A program made the translations under genes and the position numbers. From sequence record KX130865: DNA of 64,000 nucleotides; one strand, 5' to 3'. Origin of the DNA: Shigella phage SHSML-52-1. Of the stretch, positions 5,456 through 37,145 are shown in pieces. Numbering within the stretch: the stretch's first letter is position 1; every line of letters starts with the position of its first letter. The notes under the pieces were generated by a model that did not search any database, was not told the origin of the DNA, and saw only the letters and a program-made list of their open reading frames with translations.

Positions 5456-6091
5456 ATGAAAACTACACCAATCACTATCGCTATTGACGCAATCGTAAAA
5501 CAAGCTTCATCTCTTGCCACTATGGCTAAAGTAATTAGTCAAAACCCTGCCCGATATAATGCTATTCTTGAAACTCTTCGTCGCCCTGGACTGAGTAATT
5601 ATGAAAGCCGAGTAATTATTACAGGTGTTGGTAAGAATGCTAATATTGCAACTAAAGCTTCTGAGACATTTGCTTCACTAGGTATTCCTAGCATGTATTT
5701 GAACACTGGGCATTATTCTCATGGTGACGCAGGATTTATTGCACCTAATGATGTATTAGTTCACATCAGTCGTTCCGGTAAGACTGAAGAAATGATAGGT
5801 GTTGCTAAACATCTTCGTATGATTCGTCCTCAGGTTAAACAGATTCTGTTACATTGTAACCCTGACATTCCACAAGAATACGAAGCTCTTTTTGATTATA
5901 CGTTCTGTACCGGTATCGCGGTAGAAGTTGACGAGAACTCTTTAGCTCCGACCATGTCTACTACATTGTTGTTAGCGCTTATCGATACGTTCGCTATCAA
6001 CCTTTCATCTGAACGTGGATTTACCTCTAATGATTTCCTTAAGTTCCATCCAGGCGGTGCACTAGGTGCCATGTTACGAGGCGAACAATGA
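5456..6091 (+). CDS. SIS-domain sugar-phosphate isomerase (arabinose-5-phosphate isomerase / KpsF-GutQ-like)
   Basis: 211 aa; SIS signatures VGKNANIA, SRSGKTEE and C-terminal FHPGGALG typical of KdsD/GutQ-type isomerases. Confidence 0.7.
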   Translation: MKTTPITIAIDAIVKQASSLATMAKVISQNPARYNAILETLRRPGLSNYESRVIITGVGKNANIATKASETFASLGIPSMYLNTGHYSHGDAGFIAPNDVLVHISRSGKTEEMIGVAKHLRMIRPQVKQILLHCNPDIPQEYEALFDYTFCTGIAVEVDENSLAPTMSTTLLLALIDTFAINLSSERGFTSNDFLKFHPGGALGAMLRGEQ

Positions 6092-6231
6092 AAGCAATAA
6101 CAATAGGACTTTTACTATTGATGCTTGCCATGACTATCTACTGGAGCTTAACGGCTCCAGTAATGATTCCAACACTTGTAATTGGATGGATTATGATTGG
6201 TCTACAGGCAAAGTATGAATGCTTTAACTAG
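6088..6231 (+). CDS. small hydrophobic protein (47 aa), translationally coupled to the SIS gene
   Basis: ATGA overlap with the SIS stop; two predicted TM segments; not in ORF track (below 60 aa). Confidence 0.25.
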   Translation: MKAITIGLLLLMLAMTIYWSLTAPVMIPTLVIGWIMIGLQAKYECFN

Positions 6232-6244
6232 AATAGTGTACAAT
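6218..6244 (+). promoter_or_regulatory. putative middle promoter (MotA-box AATGCTTTA 6218-6226, -10 TACAAT 6239-6244)
   Basis: Box to -10 spacing 12 bp, about 30 nt upstream of the 6273 ATG. Confidence 0.4.
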
Positions 6245-6272
6245 ACACCTACTTACCAATGAGGACTTCAAC

Positions 6273-7961
6273 ATGAAAAAAGCTGTTATTCTTGGTGCTG
6301 GATTAGCAACTCGTTTATATCCAATTACTCACCATATTCCTAAGGTGCTTGTTAACTATAAACAAGACACTATTCTGAGCAATTTGTATACAATTTATTC
6401 TGACCTTGGCGCAGATGAAATTATTGTAGTAGTTCATTCAAAATTTGCTGAAACTGTTCGAGCTTATTGTGAGCAAGAAGGGTTCAATGTGACTATTCGT
6501 ACAGTTGATGAAGCGTATGGTTCTGCTTATGCTCTTGCTAAATTACACAAAGATTTAGACGGCCATAACGTAATTGTTAACTGGTGTGATATTATTCCTG
6601 ATTTTGGTTCATGGTCTTGGAATGTTAACGCAATCTATGTTAAGGGTGATGAATGTCGATATAATTTCGATGGTGAAAATATCACTAACGTAGGTTCAAC
6701 TGGTGGTAATGTTGTAGGAATTTATCAGTTCAAAGACTGGGAATTCTATATGGGTTCTACTGATGAGGAAATTCATGAATACTGCAAAGGACGTGATTTC
6801 GTAGAATTCCTTTACAGCGGCGCATTCAATAAATCAGAGCTTATGAATATCATCGACCTTGGTGATATGCCTAAACTTGAAAAAGCTCATGAAGTTCGTG
6901 AACTTAATCGTAGTTTTAATGCAGTTGAAATTGGTGAAGAAACGGTAACAAAGATTGCTTTAACAGAACAGGGCGTTGCACTTCAAAAAGATGAAGTCAA
7001 TTGGTATAAGAAAGTTAAATCAGATTCAGTTCCACGGATTGTAAGTTATCATCCTGGCGGCCACTTTATTATGGAACGCATTAAAGGTAAGCCGGCATTT
7101 GAATATATTAAATCCAAATCAAGTCTTGCTCGTCCACAAATTGTTGATGCAATTTTAGATGCACTGAAATTCAGCACAGACACTTATTTTGTAAGTCCTG
7201 AAACTGTTCGCCGTGATTTCACTAAAGAGTTCTATACGAAAGTTATTGATCGTTGTGAAAGCATTCAGCCATTGATTGATTCATTTGGTAAAATCACACA
7301 CGTGAACTACACTAAGATTGGACGTCTGAAGCCAATGTTGAAACAAGCTTTAGAACATCTTATTCGTTATCATAACCGTTCTCAGGGACAGTACTCTGTT
7401 ATTCACGGCGACCCAAACTTCAGTAATACTATGATTACTGATAACGGCGAAGTCAAGTTTATCGACCCTCGTGGATATTTTGGTGAAACCAAGATTTACG
7501 GGCCAAAATTGTACGATGAAGCTAAAGTGCTTTATGCTGTTTCAGGTTATGATGAATTCAATGCTAATCCGACCTGGGGACAGTTTACTATTGATGAAAC
7601 AACTTGTAATGTGACTATTAACATCAATCCATTAGTTTACAAATATGGAAAGATGAGTTCGTTTAACGAGTATCATCATTTGGCTGTAGCAATTATCTGG
7701 ATTGCATTAGGTGGTTATTTCAAGAATAATCCACTTAAAGCGGTAGCCGCCTATTATAAAGGTATGGAACTTCTGACTAAGCAATTACGTAACATGGGCC
7801 GTGTACTTCAAGATGGCTCTATTAGTTATGACGTAGCAGAACCTGTAACGGCTACTCTGATTACAAAAAATCCTGGTAAATGGGTGCTAACTGATAAAGA
7901 AACTGGTGTTTCCTATCGTCCAATCGGCGGCGATATCACTCATCAATGGGAACGAATCTAA
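6273..7961 (+). CDS. bifunctional sugar-1-phosphate nucleotidyltransferase (N-terminal, RmlA-like) / APH-type kinase (C-terminal)
   Basis: 562 aa; N-terminus ILGAGLATRLYPIT resembles RmlA GGSGTRLYPLT; C-terminal HGDPNFSNTMI…FIDPRGYFG resembles the HGDxxxxN / D-x-x-G motifs of APH/choline-kinase-fold kinases. Confidence 0.7.
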   Translation: MKKAVILGAGLATRLYPITHHIPKVLVNYKQDTILSNLYTIYSDLGADEIIVVVHSKFAETVRAYCEQEGFNVTIRTVDEAYGSAYALAKLHKDLDGHNVIVNWCDIIPDFGSWSWNVNAIYVKGDECRYNFDGENITNVGSTGGNVVGIYQFKDWEFYMGSTDEEIHEYCKGRDFVEFLYSGAFNKSELMNIIDLGDMPKLEKAHEVRELNRSFNAVEIGEETVTKIALTEQGVALQKDEVNWYKKVKSDSVPRIVSYHPGGHFIMERIKGKPAFEYIKSKSSLARPQIVDAILDALKFSTDTYFVSPETVRRDFTKEFYTKVIDRCESIQPLIDSFGKITHVNYTKIGRLKPMLKQALEHLIRYHNRSQGQYSVIHGDPNFSNTMITDNGEVKFIDPRGYFGETKIYGPKLYDEAKVLYAVSGYDEFNANPTWGQFTIDETTCNVTININPLVYKYGKMSSFNEYHHLAVAIIWIALGGYFKNNPLKAVAAYYKGMELLTKQLRNMGRVLQDGSISYDVAEPVTATLITKNPGKWVLTDKETGVSYRPIGGDITHQWERI

Positions 7962-8347
7962 TGCACCGTGTAGAAAACATGCTTAATCTTTGTTTTGATG
8001 TCGATGATTGTATAACAGAGTGGAATAACAATCGTGATTACGTGAACTTCAAACCAGATGTCGAAATGGTGTCTGCCATTAATGCCCTGTACGATGCAGG
8101 GCATACCATAACGCTTTACACTGCCCGTGGTATGAAGTCGGTAGGTCCTGGTCGTATAGCAATTGACATTCTCCCAAGTCTGATTCAGAACTTGGAAAAC
8201 ATTGGTTTGAAGTACCATAATTTGCTAACACATAAACCAGTATATGATTGGATTATCGACGACAAAGCTATGCGTCCTGACGAATTCAAAGCTCTTATGA
8301 ATAAAGGCGAATTCGAAACATTTAAATCATATAAACCAAATCTATAA
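7961..8347 (+). CDS. HAD-superfamily phosphatase-like protein
   Basis: N-terminal FDVDDCIT (DxDx[T/V] HAD motif I); track start 7946 but ATG 7961 abuts the upstream stop. Confidence 0.55.
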   Translation: MHRVENMLNLCFDVDDCITEWNNNRDYVNFKPDVEMVSAINALYDAGHTITLYTARGMKSVGPGRIAIDILPSLIQNLENIGLKYHNLLTHKPVYDWIIDDKAMRPDEFKALMNKGEFETFKSYKPNL

Positions 8348-8404
8348 TAATTTAAGTAAGACCTGCAAAAACCATCGCATCAATTAACGCGAGATGCAAA
8401 AAAA

Positions 8405-9565
8405 ATGAATACTTTTAAAATCGGAACGAATTTTGATTTAGCTCTTCTTGATAAAATCGTAGAGCTCAATAAAACCTATCCTAATAGCTTGATAAACGAA
8501 GTATATGGCTCTACAAGAGAAATGGCTTTTGTAGCAGCCAGACCTGATTTTAGGCTTCCTGACGTTGACAAAAAGATGTTAGAAGACTACGTTAAACGTT
8601 GTAACGAATTAGGTATTTGCTTTAACTATACACTCAACACGATAAATCCTGGTTCAAAAAGAGAACTAGTTGAGTGGAAGAAGAAAGCTATTCAGGATTA
8701 TGTTCAGTATCTTTGGTCAATAGGCGTATGGCGTATTACTATCGCTAACCCTGTTGTTATGGAAATTGTTCGTGAAGTCAATAAAGATATTGAGATTGAA
8801 GTTTCAACAATTCTACATGTTGATGCTGTAACTCAAATCAAATACTTACATGACCAATATAACATCAAAAAGGTCTGTTGCGGAATTCATAAGAACCGTT
8901 CAGTTTCTTTCCTGAAGCGTGCAGCAGAGTTTTGCAATAAGAACAATATAATATTTGAAGTTCTTGTAAATGAGTTCTGTTCTAATGCTGGTAAAGGGTA
9001 TACAACACATTGTAGTTATCGTGACTCTTGCTATATTTTCCATAGTACTGATGTTACCGCTGATGATGCTAAATCCTTAAATGGATATCCTATGCAGCAC
9101 TGTATTAAAGCTCGTGATACAGACCCATTTAACTGGTTGAGAACTCGTTTTGTTCGTCCTCAAGATTTGAAACTTTATAATGATATTGGTATCACTCAAT
9201 TCAAAGTTTCAGGACGTACAGGTAGCACAGACTACATTTTGAAAGTTCTTGAAGCATACGCTTCTGAAAAGTTTGAAGGTAATTTGTTAGAACTGTGGAA
9301 GCCTTTAGAGACTATTTTCACTCTTGAAAATGAGACTGAGTTTTCACATACAGTAAATATTGAAACCTCTTTGTTAGATGGCTTTTTAGAAAAAAGGTGG
9401 TTCAGACATCCAGATTTTGATTGTGCTAATGAAATCTGTGGGTCAACGTGTACATATTGTGAAAGGTATTATAAACGTCAATTATCTAAAAACGGGTTAG
9501 CAGAAAACTCCATATCTATTATTGATATAACTAACTCTGATGACGCTTTGAGGTACCCGGAATGA
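8405..9565 (+). CDS. hypothetical Cys-rich protein in the modification block
   Basis: 386 aa; Cys clusters (CSNAGKGYTTHCSYRDSC; CANEICGSTCTYC) suggest metal or Fe-S binding; U32-like fold considered but signature not matched. Confidence 0.6.
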   Translation: MNTFKIGTNFDLALLDKIVELNKTYPNSLINEVYGSTREMAFVAARPDFRLPDVDKKMLEDYVKRCNELGICFNYTLNTINPGSKRELVEWKKKAIQDYVQYLWSIGVWRITIANPVVMEIVREVNKDIEIEVSTILHVDAVTQIKYLHDQYNIKKVCCGIHKNRSVSFLKRAAEFCNKNNIIFEVLVNEFCSNAGKGYTTHCSYRDSCYIFHSTDVTADDAKSLNGYPMQHCIKARDTDPFNWLRTRFVRPQDLKLYNDIGITQFKVSGRTGSTDYILKVLEAYASEKFEGNLLELWKPLETIFTLENETEFSHTVNIETSLLDGFLEKRWFRHPDFDCANEICGSTCTYCERYYKRQLSKNGLAENSISIIDITNSDDALRYPE

Positions 9566-9801
9566 TTTCTAGAAAAAGTTTTAATTATAAACTTAACGAA
9601 GAGATTTTGACTATGAAACTGAACACTAACGAACAAATTCTTAAAAAGGCCCTTATGGGCCTGTTTGAAACCAAAGCGGCTAAAGTGATTAAAGAACCTG
9701 TTCAATTGGAATACTACACTGATGCATTCCTTCATAGTGTTCTTGGAAGTATAGATTCTGAAGCTTTACGTTATATCAACATTGTCAAGAAATTCAAATA
9801 A
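9562..9801 (+). CDS. hypothetical protein (79 aa)
   Basis: Track ORF overlapping the upstream stop; contains a terminator-like hairpin at 9648-9661, so coding status is uncertain. Confidence 0.3.
   Translation: MISRKSFNYKLNEEILTMKLNTNEQILKKALMGLFETKAAKVIKEPVQLEYYTDAFLHSVLGSIDSEALRYINIVKKFK
9648..9661 (+). terminator. hairpin GGCCC-TTAT-GGGCC followed by TGTTTG
   Basis: Perfect 5-bp GC stem inside ORF 9562-9801; possible attenuator after the modification-gene block. Confidence 0.3.
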
Positions 9802-9824
9802 GCTTTACGAATTGAGTATATAAT
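9800..9824 (+). promoter_or_regulatory. putative middle promoter for gene 42 (AAGCTTTA 9800-9807, -10 TATAAT 9819-9824)
   Basis: MotA-box-like element plus consensus -10 about 20 nt upstream of the 9844 ATG. Confidence 0.4.
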
Positions 9825-9843
9825 AAATTGTATTGAGGTAAAC

Positions 9844-10560
9844 ATGGGAAAACATAACACAATGAAATATATCAAAGCCGCAGATTTTCAAGCCGCATTT
9901 AAAGCAGTCAATCGTGAAATTTTAGAAAACCCTGAATTCGTAACTGATTCTCGTATTGGACGTTGTAATGAAATTGGGTCTATGACAGTAGTTGTTGACA
10001 CTCCATCATCATTCAAAATGACCGACCCACGTATTAACCGCATCTCTTATGAATACGCCGAAGACTTCTGGAAGTTTATGATTTCTGGTGGTACCAACGC
10101 AGAAGAAGCGTTTAAGGCATATCCTAATGTCGCTAAATTTATTTCTAAACCAAAATCAGATGTTTTGCCGGCGAACTTCAACACTTTCTATGGTCCTCGC
10201 ATTGCGGCCCAATTACCAACTCTTCTAAAAGAACTTAAAGAAAAACCTAACTCTCGAAGAGTTGTGTTCCAAATTCTAGAAAGTTCTGATCAGGCTTTGC
10301 TTGATTCGGACGAAACACTTGAATATCCATGTACTGACTCAGTGACTTATTATATTCGTGATGGTAAGCTTTATACCCACTGCCATATGCGTTCTCAGAA
10401 CTGTGCTGTTGTTATGCAGTTGGATTTTTATCTCCAAGGAAAATTACTTCATTATATCGCTAACGAATGCGGTGTAGAAGTTGGTGATTATACTCATACC
10501 ATGGTAAGTGCCCATGTGTTTGAACGTGATTTTGATTATGTTAAAGGATTCCTTGACTAA
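9844..10560 (+). CDS. 42: dCMP hydroxymethylase gp42 (thymidylate-synthase fold)
   Basis: 238 aa; PNSRRVVF and CTDSVTYYIRDGKLYTHCHMRSQN match the TS/dCMP-HMase active-site region (catalytic Cys). Confidence 0.85.
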   Translation: MGKHNTMKYIKAADFQAAFKAVNREILENPEFVTDSRIGRCNEIGSMTVVVDTPSSFKMTDPRINRISYEYAEDFWKFMISGGTNAEEAFKAYPNVAKFISKPKSDVLPANFNTFYGPRIAAQLPTLLKELKEKPNSRRVVFQILESSDQALLDSDETLEYPCTDSVTYYIRDGKLYTHCHMRSQNCAVVMQLDFYLQGKLLHYIANECGVEVGDYTHTMVSAHVFERDFDYVKGFLD

Positions 10561-11459
10561 TGGCTATTTTCCGCGTACCAATCTTGAGTATGCGGTCTTA
10601 TGAAACTGGACAGTATGCTATCCTTAAGGATGGCAACTTCCAACTTCATTTGCACCGTGCTAATCCAGGTGATGTGATTACATATCCACGTAATGCATCT
10701 GATATTAAAGAATGTGAACGTCTTTTCCCGGAATTTAAGTTTGTTCCATTATGGTATAAAGATAACGCGTATAACACTCGTAAATATTTCTGGTCTGAAA
10801 ATGAATTTGTGGTTGATTCATTAATTGCTTATTATGATTGTGATTTTCTAATAACAGATATCACTGGATATGACGGCGCTTTTGATGTAGAATTCAATTT
10901 CAATATCACGGCAGACCCTAATAAACCACGTTTTTATATTGACGAATTCTTAAAAACCGATATGTTGTCAGTTAATCGTTCACTTCAAACTACTGTGTTG
11001 AATGAACGTCAAAAGGAAGTGCTGGTTAAAGCCGGTGCAGATGGTAATAAGATTATCGTAACGCAGAAAGTTATACGTCCTTCCATCATGCAGCGTCTTG
11101 TAGGTGATTTGACTCCTATTCATGTAGATGGTATTTTTCATCCATTTCGAATTAGTGATCCGTGTTATCATTTTGAACAAGTGGTTGAATGTGCAATTCA
11201 ATTAGGTCAACCACTTTATATAACCGATCCAAATAATAGCTTCGACAGAAATAAGTATCCTGAAGAAGCGCTGATTCGAATTTTTAAACCAACTAAAACT
11301 GAGTACTATCAAATTCTTAAAGGACGCCCGAAGATTCAATATTTCGAAAATCCTGAAGAAGTATTCCATCCAGGTCTTGGTGAGTTCATCTACTTTAATG
11401 CTTTAATTTCTTCGCCGTATAATATACCTAAATACGAAGATGTCGTAATCGAGGAATAA
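10560..11459 (+). CDS. hypothetical protein at the T4 beta-glucosyltransferase position; candidate hmC-DNA glycosyltransferase
   Basis: 299 aa, TAATG-coupled to gene 42; no family recognised by eye; function inferred from synteny only. Confidence 0.45.
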   Translation: MAIFRVPILSMRSYETGQYAILKDGNFQLHLHRANPGDVITYPRNASDIKECERLFPEFKFVPLWYKDNAYNTRKYFWSENEFVVDSLIAYYDCDFLITDITGYDGAFDVEFNFNITADPNKPRFYIDEFLKTDMLSVNRSLQTTVLNERQKEVLVKAGADGNKIIVTQKVIRPSIMQRLVGDLTPIHVDGIFHPFRISDPCYHFEQVVECAIQLGQPLYITDPNNSFDRNKYPEEALIRIFKPTKTEYYQILKGRPKIQYFENPEEVFHPGLGEFIYFNALISSPYNIPKYEDVVIEE

Positions 11460-11460
11460 A

Positions 11461-12009
11461 ATGGCTAAAATTATTTTAGTAGATGGCCCGGATAATGCCG
11501 GTAAAACAACTTTCATTAATGACATAATGGAAATTAGTGAAAGATATGTAAAGATTGATTTCCCTAAACGAACAGTTGATGGACGTTTCGATGTTAAGTC
11601 TCGAAATGAAGTTGGTTGTTTCGAAACGATGTTGAATTATTTAGACCCTACTAAGATTTATCTGTTAGACCGTGGATATATTAGTAACTGGGTTTATGGA
11701 CGTATTCGACAAGATGCGGACTCTGTTCTTGATGTTTATGAGCAGGATTATGTTCGTCTTTGTCAAAACCATGATGTGTTCACAATTATTTTAACACGTA
11801 ACGAAATGACTGAAAGTTTTGAAGACGACCTTATTACTTTGTCTTCATTCGGTTTTAATACAGTCATTTCACATTTTGAAGAGTTTGCAATTCATAACAA
11901 AATCCAAACATATCAATTACTTAATCATGATGGTGCTAACAAAGTTATAGGATTTAATGCAAGCGAACGTAATAATTTGATTACAGAAATCATTAAATGG
12001 GCTCGTTAA
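11461..12009 (+). CDS. P-loop kinase (thymidylate/deoxynucleoside-kinase-like)
   Basis: 182 aa; Walker A VDGPDNAGKTT and LLDRGY motif resembling the TMK/dNK DRx motif. Confidence 0.55.
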   Translation: MAKIILVDGPDNAGKTTFINDIMEISERYVKIDFPKRTVDGRFDVKSRNEVGCFETMLNYLDPTKIYLLDRGYISNWVYGRIRQDADSVLDVYEQDYVRLCQNHDVFTIILTRNEMTESFEDDLITLSSFGFNTVISHFEEFAIHNKIQTYQLLNHDGANKVIGFNASERNNLITEIIKWAR

Positions 12010-29403: not shown

Positions 29404-29631
29404 ATGAAACGTCAAATCATTAAAAACGTAACTACTGATTCAAACATCGATGAGTTTGAAGATGTTCTGTTTAATCCTGATTTAGTTGTTGTACAGAAAA
29501 ACTGGACTGAATTTTTATGCTACACTGAAGTGGTTTACGTTTACGAAAAACTCGGTGATGAAATGCCTATCTATGGTATCTTCCGTGAAATCACTGAAAA
29601 CGGTACAACTTATTGGAAGGAAACTTACTAA
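29404..29631 (+). CDS. hypothetical protein (75 aa)
   Basis: ATG 29404 after AGAGGAGAA; track ORF starts 29359. Confidence 0.45.
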
Positions 29632-30035
29632 TGGCTAATAAATTCCGCGTTAACTCATGGTACAAATTTAAAGATAAACGTGCCCAAGAAGAGTTTATTA
29701 AAAACCACACTGATAATGGGATTTACGCACGACGTCTTGGCATGGAACCATTTAAAGTATTAGATGTTGACCATCTTGGACGTCCTACTAAAATTGTGAC
29801 ATCTACTGGCATGGTTGGATACGCAACAGGCGGTGATATCCTTGATGAAAACTTTATCTGGCTCTCTACGAATGAAGCAGAGTTCTTTGATGAAGTGGAA
29901 AATCCATACCAAGCTTCTGAAGAGCAAGAACAGATAGAAGATTTCACAGAATTCCCGGTAATGAAAGTTACTATCGAAAATAACGACCAGGCATGGTCTT
30001 TGTATCAAATGTTGAAAGCACATTTTAAGGAATAA
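29631..30035 (+). CDS. hypothetical acidic protein (134 aa)
   Basis: TAATG-coupled to the upstream ORF; track ORF 29613-30035. Confidence 0.5.
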
Positions 30036-30037
30036 TA

Positions 30038-30217
30038 ATGCCGTTATACGACTATAAATGTCAATCTGAAGATTGTGGCCATGAATATGAAAAAATTAAA
30101 AGGATTTCTGAACGAGAAAACGATGTTTGCCCTGAATGTCATCGTCTGTCTACTCGTCGGGTTTCTGCTCCTAAACATGTGAACGGTGGTTTTTACGACT
30201 TACTTAAGAAGGGATAA
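30038..30217 (+). CDS. zinc-ribbon protein (FmdB-like, 59 aa)
   Basis: MPLYDYKCQSEDCGHEYE…DVCPECH: CxxC…CxxC pattern of the FmdB regulatory zinc-ribbon family; not in track. Confidence 0.45.
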   Translation: MPLYDYKCQSEDCGHEYEKIKRISERENDVCPECHRLSTRRVSAPKHVNGGFYDLLKKG

Positions 30218-30219
30218 TT

Positions 30220-30645
30220 ATGGCTTTTAAAGGTTTTGAAGTTGGTAAGAAATATCGTATTATCAAAGGTCAAGAAGATAATTTCTTGAGAATTCTTAAT
30301 ACAACTGGTAAACGTCTTAACACTAATCTGCATACTACTTTATTGTCTAAAGATTTTATTGTGGAAGAGATGATTGGTTACGGTGTTTCAGTGATTGCTG
30401 TAGAAGCCGTAGGCGATTACGGCCGAACTATTCATAGTATGCAAGGTGATATTCTAATTTACGGTGCAGAATTTAAATTCTTTGAAGAAGTTCTTGAATC
30501 AGATACAGCCGTCGATTTCAAAAAAGGCTCTATAGAATTTGTTGATGGTTCGGTGATCGTATCAGGCGATGTGGTCATTACAGTTAAAAGTGAACAAGGG
30601 CGTTTGGCTGCAATTGATGCACTTCAGAAAATTAAATTTAAATAA
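30220..30645 (+). CDS. hypothetical protein (141 aa)
   Basis: Track ORF followed by a terminator. Confidence 0.55.
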   Translation: MAFKGFEVGKKYRIIKGQEDNFLRILNTTGKRLNTNLHTTLLSKDFIVEEMIGYGVSVIAVEAVGDYGRTIHSMQGDILIYGAEFKFFEEVLESDTAVDFKKGSIEFVDGSVIVSGDVVITVKSEQGRLAAIDALQKIKFK

Positions 30646-30665
30646 GGGCTTCGGCCCTTTTTGCT
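30645..30665 (+). terminator. rho-independent terminator (AGGGC-UUCG-GCCCU + U-run)
   Basis: Hairpin overlapping the stop codon, followed by TTTTTGCTTT. Confidence 0.7.
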
Positions 30666-30686
30666 TTAGATTTCGGATGATAGAAT
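30661..30686 (+). promoter_or_regulatory. putative middle promoter for gene 39 (TTGCTTTA 30661-30668, -10 TAGAAT 30681-30686)
   Basis: Near-consensus MotA box with 12-bp spacing. Confidence 0.45.
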
Positions 30687-30708
30687 ACCTTCATAACGAG
30701 GAGACAAC

Positions 30709-32526
30709 ATGATTAAAAATGAAATTAAGGTATTGTCAGATGTAGAACATATTAAGAAACGTAGTGGTATGTATATTGGTTCTTCTGCCAAAGAAGCCCA
30801 CGAGCGTTTTTTGTTTGGTAAATATCAACAAGTTGAATATGTTCCTGGTCTGGTTAAATTAATCGATGAGATTATTGACAACTCGGTTGATGAAGCTATT
30901 CGTACATCATTTAAGTTTGCAAATAAAATTGATGTGCAAATTAAAAATAATCAAGTTTCGGTGGAAGATAACGGACGTGGTATTCCTCAAGGTTTAGTTA
31001 CCGACCAAACGGGTGAACAAATTCCTGGGCCTGTAGCAGCCTGGACTATTCCAAAGGCAGGTGGTAACTTTGGTGATGACTCTGAACGCAAGACTGGTGG
31101 TATGAACGGCGTCGGGAGTAGTTTAACTAATATCTTCTCTACGTTGTTTACAGGCATCACGTCAGATGGTGAAAATGAAATCACTGTTAACTGTTCAAAC
31201 GGAATGGAAAACAAATCATGGTCTTCTAAGAAATCTAAAGGTAAAGGCACTAAAGTAATCTTCACTCCTGATTTCTCTTCATTTGAAGAGCATAATTTAT
31301 CTCAAATTTATTTAGATATTACTTTAGACCGACTTCAAACATTGGCAGTCGTTTATCCTGATATCAAGTTCACATTTAATGGTAAAAAGGTCGATGGTAA
31401 TTTTAAACGATTTGCTAAACAATTTGGTGAAGATAACATCATTCAAGAAAATGATAAAGTCTCTATAGCATTCACAACATCACCAGATGGCTTCCGTCAT
31501 TTAACTTATGTGAATAACATCCATACTAAAAATGGTGGACATCATGTTGAATGTGTAATGGACGATATCTGCGAACATCTTTTGCCGGGTATTAAAAAGA
31601 AATATAAGGGTATTGAAGTCACTAAAGCTCGTGTTAAAGAATGTCTCACAATGTTGATGTTTATTAGAGACATGAGCAACATGCGTTTTGATTCTCAGAC
31701 TAAAGAACGTTTAACGTCAACGTATGGTGATATTCGTAATCATATCCAATTAGATGCTAAGAAAATTGCTCAGGCGCTTCTTAAAAACGAAGCCTTGATT
31801 ATGCCTATTGTTGAAGCAGCATTAGCTCGTAAATTGGCGGCAGAAAAGGCTGCAGAAACTAAAGCAGCTAAAAAGGCAACTAAAGCTAAGGTTCATAAGC
31901 ATATTAAAGCTAACCAATGTGGTAAAGATGCAGATACGACATTGTTCTTAACAGAAGGTGATTCTGCAATTGGTTATCTCATTGATGTTCGTGACCGTGA
32001 ACTACATGGTGGATTCCCATTACGTGGTAAGGTAATGAATAGCTGGGGTATGTCATATGCTGATATGATGAAGAACAAAGAGCTCTTTGATATCTGTGCT
32101 ATCACAGGTCTTATTCTTGGTGAAAAGGCAGAGAATACGAACTATCGTAATATTGCAATTATGACCGATGCCGATCATGACGGTCTTGGAAGTATTTATC
32201 CGGCTTTGCTTGCTTTCTTTAGTAATTGGCCTGAATTGTTTGAACAAGGACGTATTCGCTTTGTTAAAACGCCTGTAATTATTGCACAAATTGGCAAAAC
32301 TCAAAAATGGTTTTATACTGTAGCTGAGTATGAAGAAGTTAAAGATACACTGCCTAAGCATAGTATTCGATACATCAAGGGATTGGGCTCCCTTGAAAAG
32401 TCAGAATATCGTGAAATGATTCAGAACCCTGTGTACGACGTAGTTAAACTTCCTGAAAATTGGAAAGAACTATTTGAAATGTTGTTGGGTGATGATTCAG
32501 AACTTCGTAAAGAATGGATGTCCTAA
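30709..32526 (+). CDS. 39: topoisomerase II large (GyrB-like ATPase) subunit, contiguous gp39+gp60
   Basis: 605 aa single ORF with GHKL ATPase and TOPRIM regions; no split gene 60 or bypass gap. Confidence 0.9.
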   Translation: MIKNEIKVLSDVEHIKKRSGMYIGSSAKEAHERFLFGKYQQVEYVPGLVKLIDEIIDNSVDEAIRTSFKFANKIDVQIKNNQVSVEDNGRGIPQGLVTDQTGEQIPGPVAAWTIPKAGGNFGDDSERKTGGMNGVGSSLTNIFSTLFTGITSDGENEITVNCSNGMENKSWSSKKSKGKGTKVIFTPDFSSFEEHNLSQIYLDITLDRLQTLAVVYPDIKFTFNGKKVDGNFKRFAKQFGEDNIIQENDKVSIAFTTSPDGFRHLTYVNNIHTKNGGHHVECVMDDICEHLLPGIKKKYKGIEVTKARVKECLTMLMFIRDMSNMRFDSQTKERLTSTYGDIRNHIQLDAKKIAQALLKNEALIMPIVEAALARKLAAEKAAETKAAKKATKAKVHKHIKANQCGKDADTTLFLTEGDSAIGYLIDVRDRELHGGFPLRGKVMNSWGMSYADMMKNKELFDICAITGLILGEKAENTNYRNIAIMTDADHDGLGSIYPALLAFFSNWPELFEQGRIRFVKTPVIIAQIGKTQKWFYTVAEYEEVKDTLPKHSIRYIKGLGSLEKSEYREMIQNPVYDVVKLPENWKELFEMLLGDDSELRKEWMS

Positions 32527-32542
32527 GCTCCTTAGGGAGCTT
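32525..32542 (+). terminator. hairpin AAGCTCC-TTAG-GGAGCTT after gene 39
   Basis: 7-bp stem overlapping the stop codon, followed by a T-rich tract. Confidence 0.45.
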
Positions 32543-32568
32543 CATTTTAATTTTAATAAGGCTTAATT

Positions 32569-33669
32569 ATGAAAGTTATGTTTATCCCATCTCGCGCAGT
32601 CCCATTTAACCCAGAACGTGTACAAGGTGGTCTTGAAGCAGTACATTTAAATGTGTTGAAATATTTAGTTTCTATCGGTGCTGATATTGATTATATCGGC
32701 TTTGATAATGACACATTTGGTGATTGGAAGGTTAATCATCATCCTGTTGGTCATCTGACTAAATTCAGTCTAGGTATGAGTTATACTATGGCTCGTAAGA
32801 TTGTTGAACTAGCCGGCATCCATGAATACGATTTTGTTGTTACTATGGAACCGACTAAACTAACCGTTCAGGCAATTAAAGACGCAGGTCTCTCTAAAGT
32901 TCATAAGAATTTTATGGCAACACCATTTGAACCGGTATCTCGTGGCATTGTTCAAATTTGGGACCAGACTATTCAAATTCATAAGAATGGTGGTAAGAGC
33001 TATGCTCCTACTAAAGCCTTCCGTGAATTTGAACGTAAATATTGTTATATGACTTCAGGTCTGACTGACAAAATTGATTATGATTATTGGCGAGCAAATC
33101 CGTTGTTTGAAGCCGAAGATTATCCGGTTATTTGTTTGAATGAGAAACCTGAAGTTCTTCCGGCGACTGATCTGATTATTAGTGCACAACGTTATGACAC
33201 TAAAATGCGTCGTACTGATGTTGCTCTTGAAGCGATTAAAGCACTAGGCGAAAATGGTGTAGGATACTGTCCTAGTAAATGGGCACCACCGGCTAAGTAT
33301 CCTGTTATTATTGATGCTCCACACAGTGAAATCATGGAACGTCTTAAAACAGCTAAAGCACTTATCAATACGTGTCCTGACACGGGTACGGTAGAGAATA
33401 GTTCTATTGAAGCCATCTCTAAAGGTGTCCCTGTGATTCAGTTAGTTTTTAAGGATTATCCGCACGCGACATTCGAATATGACCCAGATACTGTGCGTGT
33501 AGAAATTGATTCCTCTACTCCTAAGAAAGAAGTAGTTGCGCTTTACACAAAAGCTGTATTAGAATTCACTGACACATACGAAGCTCGAGTTAAACGTGCT
33601 GAAGCAGTATGGAAGAAGTATAACCGAGATGCGGTTGTTGCGATGTGGGATAAAATCTTCACAGCGTAA
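32569..33669 (+). CDS. GT-B-fold glycosyltransferase (GT4-like); candidate hmC-DNA sugar transferase
   Basis: 366 aa; C-terminal TGTVENSSIEAISKGVPVIQ resembles the GT4 E-x7-E sugar-donor motif; sits between 39 and rIIA. Confidence 0.6.
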   Translation: MKVMFIPSRAVPFNPERVQGGLEAVHLNVLKYLVSIGADIDYIGFDNDTFGDWKVNHHPVGHLTKFSLGMSYTMARKIVELAGIHEYDFVVTMEPTKLTVQAIKDAGLSKVHKNFMATPFEPVSRGIVQIWDQTIQIHKNGGKSYAPTKAFREFERKYCYMTSGLTDKIDYDYWRANPLFEAEDYPVICLNEKPEVLPATDLIISAQRYDTKMRRTDVALEAIKALGENGVGYCPSKWAPPAKYPVIIDAPHSEIMERLKTAKALINTCPDTGTVENSSIEAISKGVPVIQLVFKDYPHATFEYDPDTVRVEIDSSTPKKEVVALYTKAVLEFTDTYEARVKRAEAVWKKYNRDAVVAMWDKIFTA

Positions 33670-33685
33670 ATCCTGAATCGCCTGA

Positions 33686-33736
33686 GGCACTATTACACAT
33701 AAGATGATAGATTATATGGTCTTTAGTAATAGTGCC
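33686..33736. repeat. 11-bp perfect inverted repeat (GGCACTATTAC / GTAATAGTGCC) with 29-nt loop
   Basis: Arms at 33686-33696 and 33726-33736 in the intergenic region after the glycosyltransferase. Confidence 0.6.
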
Positions 33737-33761
33737 CTAGGAATCTACTGAAGAGAATATT

Positions 33762-33962
33762 ATGAGAACATATAACGTGGACTTGGAACTTTTTGATAAA
33801 GCAGTGCTCCGGGAATTCCGGCTTATCCAAAGATTTTTTGATATCGAATCAGCAGAGTCCTTTAAAGAACGCTTTAAAGAAATTCGATATAAAATACAAA
33901 CCGATACAGCTACTAAAGAAGAACTTCTTGAAGTAGCAGAAATTTTTAAACGTAACTTGTGA
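33762..33962 (+). CDS. hypothetical protein (66 aa)
   Basis: Track ORF immediately upstream of rIIA. Confidence 0.4.
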   Translation: MRTYNVDLELFDKAVLREFRLIQRFFDIESAESFKERFKEIRYKIQTDTATKEELLEVAEIFKRNL

Positions 33963-33974
33963 TGAGAGAAAAAT

Positions 33975-36188
33975 ATGATTATTGAAACGGCTAAAGAAAC
34001 GATTATTGGTTCAGGCGGTAAGAGCACAGCATTCACTATTCAAGGCAATAGCAAAGTTTATAAGATTTTGTCTAATGACCTTTATACAAACAAAGAATTG
34101 GCTTGTGTACGTGAATTAATCACAAACTGTATTGATGGACAAATTCTTAATGGTTGCACTGATAAGTTTATTGTTCAGGCTCCAGGTCGTTTAGACCCAC
34201 GTTTTGTAGTTCGAGACTTTGGTCCTGGTATGAGTGATTTCACCATTAGAGGTAATGACGAAGAGCCAGGAATCTATAATTCATATTTTGCTTCAACTAA
34301 AACATCGAGTAACGATTTCATTGGTGGATTCGGACTCGGCTCTAAAGCTCCGCTAGCATATACCGATACATTTAACCTTACGTCTTATCACAACGGTGAA
34401 GTTCGTGGTTACGTAATCTACCAAGATGACACAGGTCCACAAATTAAGCTGACCTTTGTAGATAAGATGGGTCCTGATGACCGTACGGGTGTAGAAGTAG
34501 TCGTACCGGTTAACCCGGAAGATTTTGAAAAGTTCGCATCCGAAATTGCATATGTTATGCGTCCTCTAGGTGATATTGCAGAAGTTCGTGGTGTTAAAGA
34601 TATTAAATACTTCCCTGAATTTGACGATGTATATTTGGCCAAGGAAGCTCCATGGGGTGAACGCGGTAATATCATGGCTGTTTACGGTGGTATTGTATAT
34701 CCAATCGGAAGTGTTATTAAAGAACAAACATGGATGATGACTCGATGCACCACAGCTTATATTAAATTCCCTATGGGTGAACTAGACGTAGCTCCGTCTC
34801 GTGAAGCATTGTCATTTGATAAACGTACAGTAGCAAATATCCATAAACGCGTTGCAGAAATCGATGCTAAATTGTTCGCTGAAGATTCTAAGAAATGGAT
34901 TGATTGTAAATACCCACGTCATGTGTTCCGTGAAATTGATTCTCTTGGTTATACCGCTCGTAAATACATGGAAAAGGCTGGGTCTAATATTGAATCACTG
35001 AAATACTCTAAAGAACAACTAACTTATTCTGAGTTGTACAAACGTTTTAAAATGGGGCCTGAGTGGTGTAATCTTGGCGTCGTATATGATATCGTTGAAT
35101 CCCCTCGTCTTCGTCGTATTCGTGAAAGTGGTAGCTCATCATCGACCATTTCAATTAACAGCCTGATTGGCATTAACATTAAAAATGTTGAAATCGTTAT
35201 TGACGACGTTAAGGGACGCGTTCCATTAATGCGAGCTCTTAATTCAATTGAAATGTCTAAAGACGAGGTTAAATTAACTGGTAAAGTTCCACGCGGTTTT
35301 GGTAAAAGTGTACTATTCGTTGACCCTACAGACGAAGATGCAATGAAACTTCTGGAACGCCTTAAAGTTATCTTTGATGGCGACAACATTAACATGTACA
35401 AGACTTCAGAGCTTTTACAAATCGTTAAGCCATGGATTGAAGTCAGGAAACGGACTAATGAGCCTCGTCCTAAATCGCCAAGTGCTCATCGATTCTTTAA
35501 GAATGAAAACGACGTTTGGGTATCAGAAGATCTCTTTATTCCGGCAAGTGAAGCAGATGAAATCCAAGGTTATGCTATAGTTCGTAATCGTTCTAATGCT
35601 GAATGTCTTGATGCAGATAAAGGTTGGTTGAACTATGACTCCAATTTCTTGACTCGTATTGCTGATTTGTCAGGTATTAAAGAGTTCACTGTAGTTCGTC
35701 CACAGATTGCTAAGAAAGTTCGTAAACTTGGTGAAGTAGAATGCTTGTTCGAAAAATCAATTAATGACTATATTATGCTAATCGATAAAGTGGATTATGA
35801 TGAGTATGTATCACCAAGTCGTAGAGCACAGCCTTATTTGAATCATATTACTCGTAATGAAGAGCTTAACTTCCTTAGTAAGTATTTTAGCTCTAAGAAC
35901 AAAGAAATCAGTAAAGACTTTGCAAAACTCTCCACAGTAAATAATCGCTGGGGATGGAATCGATTCGCAGGTGCTACTAATACAGACCTGAATAAGAAGT
36001 TAGAATTGTGTGCTAAAATTTTCGATAAGCTTAAAGATAATGCTTACGATAATGATGATAAAATGGTTATTGAATTCGAAACCAATTATCATATTGTGTC
36101 AGAATACATGGGACGACGTGGTACTCTTTCAAAAGAACAGGTCGCTCAAATCGTTAAATTCATGAAGGCCGTGGAAGCGGCCAAATAA
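33975..36188 (+). CDS. rIIA: rIIA membrane-associated protein
   Basis: 737 aa; extensive match to recalled T4 rIIA (…LYTNK…VRELITN…RLDPRFV…FGPGMSDF…). Confidence 0.95.
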   Translation: MIIETAKETIIGSGGKSTAFTIQGNSKVYKILSNDLYTNKELACVRELITNCIDGQILNGCTDKFIVQAPGRLDPRFVVRDFGPGMSDFTIRGNDEEPGIYNSYFASTKTSSNDFIGGFGLGSKAPLAYTDTFNLTSYHNGEVRGYVIYQDDTGPQIKLTFVDKMGPDDRTGVEVVVPVNPEDFEKFASEIAYVMRPLGDIAEVRGVKDIKYFPEFDDVYLAKEAPWGERGNIMAVYGGIVYPIGSVIKEQTWMMTRCTTAYIKFPMGELDVAPSREALSFDKRTVANIHKRVAEIDAKLFAEDSKKWIDCKYPRHVFREIDSLGYTARKYMEKAGSNIESLKYSKEQLTYSELYKRFKMGPEWCNLGVVYDIVESPRLRRIRESGSSSSTISINSLIGINIKNVEIVIDDVKGRVPLMRALNSIEMSKDEVKLTGKVPRGFGKSVLFVDPTDEDAMKLLERLKVIFDGDNINMYKTSELLQIVKPWIEVRKRTNEPRPKSPSAHRFFKNENDVWVSEDLFIPASEADEIQGYAIVRNRSNAECLDADKGWLNYDSNFLTRIADLSGIKEFTVVRPQIAKKVRKLGEVECLFEKSINDYIMLIDKVDYDEYVSPSRRAQPYLNHITRNEELNFLSKYFSSKNKEISKDFAKLSTVNNRWGWNRFAGATNTDLNKKLELCAKIFDKLKDNAYDNDDKMVIEFETNYHIVSEYMGRRGTLSKEQVAQIVKFMKAVEAAK

Positions 36189-36197
36189 GGAAACATT

Positions 36198-37145
36198 ATG
36201 TACAATATCAAATGCTTGTCCCAAGAAGAACAGTTAGAAGCTTACGGCCTGGTTGAATCAGGCAAATGGACTCGTAAAGAAATTGCCGATTACTTCGACA
36301 TTTCAACAGATACTCTTCGTAAGATTGTTAAGAATTTTAAAGCAGAAGGCGTTGTCCCTGAATCAAACGATGCCTCTTATGTAATCGAAGAAGTTCCAGA
36401 AAATGATGAACCTATTATCGGCGGACATCGTCCTGAAATCGTATGGAACGCGTCATCTAAATTTATTTCAATTATTGAAGGACGCGTAGCATACAATGCG
36501 ACCCCATCAAGTCATGCAAATTTTGAAGAAATTAAAGCTAATCTGGTCGCAGGAAACCTTAGTAAAGCTGTCGAACTTATTAACATCAAGAAAGCTATTA
36601 GTAAGTTTGTTGATGGTAATGTTGTTATTGAAGGTGGTAGTTTATTTTATCAAGGTATAGAGATTCGTTCTGGCCTGGTTAATCGTATTATTGATTCTAT
36701 GGAAAAAGGCGAAGACTTTAAATTCTATCTGCCGTTCCTTGAAAACCTGTTAGAAAACCCAAGCGAAAAAGCTGTACAACGTTTATTCGACTTCTTGGTT
36801 GCAAACGATATTGAAATCACTGAAGATGGGTATTTCTATGCATGGAAAGTAGTTCGTAAGGACTATTTAGACTGCTATAGTGGTACATTTGATAACTCCC
36901 CAGGTAAAGTTGTTTCAATGCCTCGTACTCGAGTTAACGACGATGATACTCAAACCTGTTCTCGCGGTCTCCACGTTTGTGCTAAATCTTATATTCGCCA
37001 CTTTGGTTCTAGCTCAGATAAAGTTGTTAAGGTTAAAGTTCATCCACGTGATGTTGTATCCATCCCAGTTGACTACGGTGATGCTAAGATGCGTACTTGT
37101 CGTTATGAAGTAATTTCAGACGTTACTGAATTATTTGCAGAATAA
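36198..37145 (+). CDS. rIIB: rIIB protein
   Basis: 315 aa; MYNIKCL… and conserved C-terminal half (GGSLFYQ…PGKVVSMPRTRVNDDDTQTCSRGLHVC…) match T4 rIIB. Confidence 0.95.
   Translation: MYNIKCLSQEEQLEAYGLVESGKWTRKEIADYFDISTDTLRKIVKNFKAEGVVPESNDASYVIEEVPENDEPIIGGHRPEIVWNASSKFISIIEGRVAYNATPSSHANFEEIKANLVAGNLSKAVELINIKKAISKFVDGNVVIEGGSLFYQGIEIRSGLVNRIIDSMEKGEDFKFYLPFLENLLENPSEKAVQRLFDFLVANDIEITEDGYFYAWKVVRKDYLDCYSGTFDNSPGKVVSMPRTRVNDDDTQTCSRGLHVCAKSYIRHFGSSSDKVVKVKVHPRDVVSIPVDYGDAKMRTCRYEVISDVTELFAE

Follow-up and report, generated by a model that had tools for sequence, protein, structure and literature searches.

The glycosyltransferase gene between gene 39 and rIIA of Shigella phage SHSML-52-1 probably encodes the second-sugar arabinosyltransferase of Mosigvirus DNA

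A stretch of 64,000 nucleotides from Shigella phage SHSML-52-1 (record KX130865), referred to below as the window, has an open reading frame (ORF) between gene 39 and the rII genes whose product appears to glycosylate the phage DNA. The ORF listing of the window places it at 32569..33669 on the + strand, with an ATG start and a product of 366 amino acids. Matches to phage RB69, the Protein Data Bank (PDB) and Acinetobacter phage DLP3 assign this coding sequence to a GT-B glycosyltransferase family, ORF003c/gp3. Upstream is gene 39 (30709-32526), encoding the fused topoisomerase II large subunit gp39 of 605 amino acids; downstream are rIIA.1 (33762-33962), rIIA (33975-36188) and rIIB (36198-37145). 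RB69 has the identical gene order, gene 39 - ORF003c - rIIA.1 - rIIA. T4 has no gene corresponding to ORF003c at the gene 39/rIIA.1 junction; therefore ORF003c is an insertion specific to the Mosigviruses at this site. An initial annotation of the window had described a 366-amino acid protein carrying the stretch TGTVENSSIEAISKGVPVIQ, encoded far from the sugar-nucleotide genes and near rIIA. The ORF list and the translation agree with it, the stretch being residues 272-291. The cluster of sugar-nucleotide and DNA modification genes lies about 21 kb away, at 5456-12009, and rIIA.1 and then rIIA follow the gene.

The protein was searched by tblastn against 50,697 phage records, and 210 of them matched. 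In 154 of these the identity is 95-100%, and the genus, wherever stated, is Mosigvirus (RB69-like coliphages and Shigella phages); a single record, Mosigvirus mar005p1 (OZ035759.1), is 100% identical. The source genome is a Mosigvirus, an RB69-like phage. The remaining 56 records have less than 60% identity, and 55 of them are Acinetobacter phages, at about 43% among the matches listed and with two copies each. The other, with an organism name starting 'Tegunavirus', is the only match beyond these two groups. Thus the family is nearly confined to Mosigviruses, with one copy, and Acinetobacter phages, with two. The RB69 protein (RB69ORF003c, RB69p003, gp3, NP_861693.1) is identical at 363 of 366 positions (99.2%), and the three substitutions that set the SHSML-52-1 protein apart (E16D, V231A, T327I) amount to nothing of substance. 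Judged by sequence, the two ORFs are the same gene in different isolates. The ORF is not a chance reading frame, because it is conserved across Mosigviruses and Acinetobacter phages and a near-identical protein has been crystallized. It matches PHROG 8302, a family of 'unknown function', over residues 1-366 (E 4.5e-223), and its label in GenBank is nearly always "hypothetical protein". Recent horizontal transfer of the gene was weighed and dropped, its G+C content (0.37-0.41) being unremarkable against that of the flanks (0.35-0.41).

A HMMER search of PDB sequences with the protein gave a single match, 9iqz/9ir0 (E 8e-250), whose chains are identical to it at 361 of 366 positions (98.6%, five substitutions). 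Both entries were released on 2025-07-16; the titles reported by Foldseek are "phage HY126 glycosyltransferase" (9iqz, apo) and "phage HY126 glycosyltransferase with UDP" (9ir0). The HY126 genome (PP658200.1) has a gene, XAN60436.1, at the same locus with the same local gene order, and this gene and the crystallized chain have four diagnostic substitutions in common. The title of 9ir0 points to binding of uridine diphosphate (UDP) by this protein. A Pfam scan of the 366-amino acid protein gave no family at E<=10, no NCBIfam model matched it, and a HMMER search of the PDB with the family profile gave no solved glycosyltransferase besides 9iqz/9ir0. Collections of 5.8 billion and 1.84 billion proteins yielded 5 clusters and 12 representatives of the family, respectively, and a scan of IMG/VR found 7 loci, all in Mosigvirus or Acinetobacter phage genomes. 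For two divergent members from metagenomes, P0009 and P0010, sequenced phages offered no close relative, and the wider scans brought no new genomic contexts.

An AlphaFold2 (AF2) model of the protein has alternating strands and helices in two halves, in keeping with the GT-B fold, in which a cleft separates two Rossmann-like beta/alpha/beta domains. The model was used for fold-level matching only; the match to the crystal structure was relied on instead. Its nearest structural neighbors are tetrahydrobiopterin glucosyltransferase, sucrose-phosphate synthase, BshA, PimA, PimB, WaaB and PglA. Invariant across 12 diverse members of the family are G20-G21, R208 and R214 (spaced by 6), E276, E281 and G286-x-P288-V289. 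The most conserved stretch is TGTVENSSIEAISKGVPVIQ, in which T272, G273, T274, E276, S279, E281, A282, I283, G286, P288, V289 and Q291 are invariant or nearly so in the same 12 members. The family members miss the Pfam gathering score for GT4 models; their best score for GT4-conflict is 17 bits, where 26 are required. Alignment of the family profile by hhalign with the weakest profile match, P0015, a true GT4 protein that passes the Pfam Glyco_transf_4 threshold, gave 98.2% probability over 341 columns (E 4e-14). E281 is there paired with the second Glu of the P0015 E-x7-E motif, and it would be the Glu by which the C-terminal, donor-binding domain of GT-B enzymes contacts the ribose. At the first Glu position stands G273, with an invariant E276 three residues on, so that the family has E276-x4-E281. 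Fold and profile comparison place the protein among the GT4-like GT-B enzymes, and the GT4-like donor motif proposed in the initial annotation is a reasonable description.

The bacterial GT4-type enzymes PimA, BshA, sucrose-phosphate synthase, WaaB and PglA resemble the phage protein in the N-terminal GG loop, the R...R/K phosphate pair and the C-terminal Glu on the EAxxxGxPV helix. Their identity to it is, however, only about 12%, and the first Glu of their E-x7-E motif is replaced in the ORF003c family. They also retain the configuration of the transferred sugar, whereas the product of the ORF003c family is reported to be beta-linked and its acceptor would be a sugar on DNA. Comparison with characterized phage DNA glycosyltransferases, a check suggested at the outset, gave two different results. 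The T4 alpha- and beta-glucosyltransferases (CAZy GT72 and GT63) are alike in outline, being GT-B enzymes that transfer a UDP-sugar to modified cytosines of DNA after replication. Their glucose goes to a hydroxymethyl group, whereas the gp3 family would transfer arabinofuranose (Araf) to a sugar hydroxyl of 5-O-arabinosyl-cytosine. By hhalign the family profile shows no detectable homology to T4 a-gt (0.32% probability) or b-gt (0.34%), and membership in the T4 glucosyltransferase families was rejected on this result. DLP3 gp77 and gp76 (078 and 077 in phage Maestro), in contrast, align with the 366-amino acid protein over the full length at 43% and 40% identity, with all donor-site residues conserved.

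Arabinose was found in RB69 DNA by Thomas et al. in 2018, who used custom hidden Markov models and HHpred to nominate ORF003c as an arabinosyltransferase with a GT-B fold (PMC6024577). Their HHpred matches, which included the T4 alpha-glucosyltransferase, were at the level of the fold only (no more than 13% identity), and Gly-20, Arg-207 and Glu-281 were named as donor-site residues (PMC6024577). Lee et al. in 2026 showed that the modified base is 5-hydroxycytosine, not hydroxymethylcytosine, and that RB69 DNA contains both mono-arabinosyl and beta-D-Araf-(1-3)-alpha-D-Araf-5-hydroxy-deoxycytidine (5-hydroxy-dC) (PMC13326640). DLP3 DNA has an additional third Araf, beta-1,5-linked (PMC13326640). 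In their proposal RB69 gp46:47 is the first transferase and gp3/RB69p003 is 'beta-arabinosyltransferase 2' (PMC13326640). The gene is therefore already known: it was a published candidate in 2018, was reassigned in 2026 and its product has been crystallized. The initial annotation had placed the RB69 arabinosyltransferase candidate in this region. It is indeed the RB69ORF003c ortholog, but it can no longer be called "the" arabinosyltransferase, being now assigned the second sugar, and the base it would act on is not hydroxymethylcytosine. The Mosigviruses NP, Bas46 and Bas47 are likewise di-arabinosylated. According to a sentence in a citing paper, Bas46 deleted for "the arabinosyltransferase Aat" is sensitized to plasmid-borne defence; from that sentence Aat would appear to be the ORF003c gene.

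All the partner genes of such a pathway, namely the 5-hydroxy-deoxycytidine monophosphate (5-hydroxy-dCMP) synthase, the UDP-Araf genes and the first glycosyltransferase, are present in the window at 5456-12009, and in Acinetobacter phages they adjoin the family members. An arabinose-5-phosphate isomerase (5456-6091, + strand; NCBIfam KpsF/GutQ), a bifunctional nucleotidyltransferase/kinase of 562 amino acids (6273-7961, +; NCBIfam sugar-1-phosphate nucleotidyltransferases) and a HAD-like phosphatase (7946-8347, +; NCBIfam EcbF-BcbF phosphatase) constitute the UDP-arabinofuranose supply, a pathway role taken from the literature. A thymidylate-synthase homolog (9844..10560, +; nearly identical to PDB 9iqc/9ir2, E 2.9e-160) is the 5-hydroxy-dCMP synthase that makes the acceptor base; the RB69 enzyme, gp48, has been confirmed experimentally (PMC13326640). 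It is followed by a GT-B glycosyltransferase of 299 amino acids (10560..11459, +), the ortholog of RB69 gp46:47 and the proposed first transferase (alpha-Araf onto 5-hydroxycytosine), and by a nucleotide kinase, the RB69 gp45 ortholog (11461..12009, +). The stop codon of the synthase overlaps the start of the glycosyltransferase and the kinase begins 2 nt past the glycosyltransferase end, which suggests a tightly coupled three-gene unit. Glycosyltransferases of this type occur in 347 phage records and at least 137 protein clusters, with hosts that include Escherichia, Klebsiella, Serratia, Enterobacter, Yersinia, Proteus, Edwardsiella, Pectobacterium, Pseudomonas, Shewanella, Acinetobacter and others. 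A gene of this type is present in every arabinosylating lineage, and the enzyme belongs to the core of the pathway.

The model of the 299-amino acid protein is a confident GT-B fold (predicted local distance difference test, pLDDT, 94.9), and hhalign detected no sequence similarity between it and the ORF003c family. The idea that the two glycosyltransferases are paralogs was rejected on this negative result. Two separate transfer activities, as the initial annotation had suggested, are consistent with this second, dissimilar GT-B enzyme and with the two-enzyme scheme proposed in PMC13326640. Both the 299-amino acid ORF and the 562-amino acid ORF are intact in the window, whereas the RB69 reference splits each of them (gp46/gp47 and ORF052c/ORF053c); the intact ORFs support the published interpretation that sequencing errors produced the RB69 splits. 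Also within the arabinose cluster is a 386-amino acid protein (8405-9565, the RB69p050 ortholog) with a weak UbiU/U32-like match. By tblastn, none of the Acinetobacter phage clusters examined (L002, L007-L010) contains a counterpart of it.

In Maestro, DLP3, Acj61, Acj9 and two other Acinetobacter phages, two copies of the family stand in tandem directly past the arabinose cluster, the genes before them being the isomerase, nucleotidyltransferase/kinase, phosphatase, ThyA, GT1 and kinase. In Acj9 the cluster is rearranged (ThyA, GT1 and kinase, then isomerase, nucleotidyltransferase/kinase and phosphatase) and the tandem copies still follow. One of the Acj9 copies matches in two pieces that meet at about residue 185, which agrees with the p082-p081 split that Thomas et al. 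described (PMC6024577). The two Acinetobacter paralogs share 56% identity, and their identity to the 366-amino acid protein is 42-44%. They branch together, apart from the Mosigvirus protein, and the duplication is therefore specific to that lineage. The tandem DLP3 pair inside the arabinose cluster is associated with a third sugar, whereas the Mosigvirus copy is single and near rII. When combined, DLP3 gp76 and gp77 transferred the third Araf from UDP-Araf onto RB69 DNA in vitro (PMC13326640).

The number of family copies follows the number of arabinoses per base. Shewanella phage Thanatos, with the 10560-type enzyme as its single glycosyltransferase, has no ORF003c-family copy and one arabinose; RB69, NP, Bas46 and Bas47 have one copy and two arabinoses; DLP3 has two copies and three arabinoses. 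This pattern supports an elongating transferase and opposes a role in adding the first sugar. The latter would make the 366-amino acid protein the primary arabinosyltransferase, placing the first arabinose directly on the modified cytosine and leaving some other role to the 10560 protein, and it has the precedent of Thomas et al., who placed ORF003c at the final step of arabinosyl-cytosine formation (PMC6024577). That paper, however, is older than the discovery of di-arabinose and 5-hydroxycytosine. Most arabinosylating lineages lack the ORF003c family yet have the ThyA homolog, the sugar-activation genes and a 10560-type glycosyltransferase, and mono-arabinosylated Thanatos has the 10560 type only. 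Together with the confident GT-B model of the 10560 protein and the overlap of its start with the synthase stop, these observations make a first-sugar role for the 366-amino acid protein quite unlikely.

The 366-amino acid enzyme thus probably adds a beta-1,3-linked second arabinose from UDP-D-Araf to alpha-Araf-5-hydroxycytosine in replicated DNA. It has the identity of gp3 and 9iqz, a GT-B/GT4-like fold, a conserved donor site and a phyletic and syntenic link to poly-arabinosylation. In the proposed sequence of events the thymidylate-synthase homolog at 9844 would serve the replacement of dC by 5-hydroxy-dC, and the 299-amino acid glycosyltransferase at 10560 would then put alpha-D-arabinofuranose on the 5-oxygen. 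The 366-amino acid protein, predicted to be a soluble, UDP-binding GT-B enzyme working on the phage's own replicated DNA, would move a second D-arabinofuranose from UDP-Araf to O3 of the first sugar. This would yield beta-D-Araf-(1-3)-alpha-D-Araf-5-hydroxy-dC, which is the principal modified base in the DNA of Mosigviruses. The additional arabinose would be an accessory layer that gives wider protection against host nucleases and other defences.

A transferase acting before replication would fit the dedicated nucleotide kinases present in the cluster. The enzyme would then work on a pool of arabinosylated mononucleotides and generate a di-arabinosyl-dCMP or di-arabinosyl-deoxycytidine triphosphate (dCTP) precursor. 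But such a precursor would require a DNA polymerase able to use a very bulky disaccharide deoxynucleoside triphosphate, and all characterized T-even sugar transfers are post-replicative, as is generally known for the T4 alpha- and beta-glucosyltransferases. The substrate taken by DLP3 gp76 and gp77 is, moreover, duplex virion DNA (PMC13326640). Transfer to the nucleotide pool is on this evidence highly improbable.

The structural neighbors raise a different alternative, that the target is not DNA at all but a host envelope glycolipid, a polysaccharide or a phage or host protein, and that the adjacency to rII is unrelated to DNA modification. PimA, BshA, WaaB, PglA and tetrahydrobiopterin glucosyltransferase use lipids, small molecules and polysaccharides, one GenBank record labels the protein phosphatidylinositol mannosyltransferase, and the Mosigvirus gene is 21 kb away from the sugar genes. 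The T4 DNA alpha-glucosyltransferase, however, is also a GT-B enzyme with non-DNA enzymes as neighbors. Every Acinetobacter phage examined has its homologs within the DNA-arabinosylation cluster, members of the family occur only in phages with 5-hydroxycytosine pathways, its copy number follows the arabinose count per base, and the DLP3 homologs modify DNA in vitro (PMC13326640). A non-DNA target is therefore extremely improbable.

Several points weigh against transfer of the second sugar to DNA by the 366-amino acid enzyme. The assignment of this step to gp3 in Lee et al. is a proposal only (PMC13326640). The AF2 model is moderate (pLDDT 61, with residues 115-188 unmodeled), because the alignment behind it has 6 sequences. 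The DLP3 glycosyltransferases showed no activity when assayed singly, gp76 and gp77 being required jointly (PMC13326640), and by analogy members of the ORF003c family may need a partner or an oligomeric state. Finally, the closest structural neighbors are retaining GT4 enzymes, yet the assigned product has a beta linkage. This last difficulty involves both glycosyltransferases, each of which has retaining GT4-type enzymes as its closest structural neighbors; the linkage, however, is alpha for the first sugar and beta for the second. If both draw on a single UDP-Araf donor, one of the two enzymes must run a course opposite to that of its structural relatives. The ORF003c family could be an inverting clade that arose from a GT4-like architecture, with the signature G273...E276-x4-E281 in place of E-x7-E, although this is put forward tentatively and as rather doubtful. 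If it were true, the joint need for the two DLP3 paralogs would suggest that the family acts as an obligate dimer on DNA.

The sequence around the gene gives some indication of how it might be expressed. A Shine-Dalgarno-like AAGG, read from the sequence, lies at 32558..32561 (+), 7 nt upstream of the ATG. A G+C-rich hairpin, AAGCTCC-TTAG-GGAGCTT, at 32525..32542 (+; -11.6 kcal/mol) overlaps the gene 39 stop codon, and a T-rich tract comes after it; the structure resembles a leaky terminator, or else a stem that stabilizes RNA, between gene 39 and the glycosyltransferase gene. A MotA-box-like motif match, TTTGCTTTA, is found at 30660..30668 (+), 41 nt before the ATG of gene 39. Within 29500-34200 there is no other MotA-box match, and no late-promoter TATAAATA occurs. 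TTTGCTTTA is probably a middle promoter of the T4 type and would drive the glycosyltransferase gene too. Because the MotA box is present only upstream of gene 39 and there is no late promoter, the gene is probably transcribed by readthrough from the gene 39 middle or early transcript. Such timing would suit a DNA-modifying enzyme.

Directly 5' of TTTGCTTTA is a terminator-like hairpin, AAGGGC-TTCG-GCCCTT, and the two together (30644-30668) resemble a T4-style junction of terminator and middle promoter. On the other side of the gene, the 92 nt that separate its stop codon from the start of rIIA.1 contain a strong hairpin at 33680-33745 (-28.5 kcal/mol). Its outer stem is a perfect 11-bp pairing of GGCACTATTAC with GTAATAGTGCC, and the hairpin might serve in termination, RNA processing or regulation. 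In Shigella phage JK45 (MK962757.1, 2520-4123) a full-length ORF003c ortholog is accompanied by an extra family-matching ORF of 136 amino acids before rIIA.1, which looks like either a partial tandem duplication or an artefact of assembly. The JK45 record is classed as Tequatrovirus despite its Mosigvirus-type genes.

The practical value of the analysis is that a gene labeled "hypothetical protein" can receive a functional annotation; it adds no new biology. Among the hypermodifications of phage DNA, arabinosylated 5-hydroxycytosine has been defined only recently; many restriction enzymes and CRISPR systems are blocked by it, and it has consequences for how therapeutic phages are sequenced and engineered. 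The enzyme for the second sugar separates mono-arabinosylated from di-arabinosylated genomes and so matters for the prediction of defence evasion from sequence.

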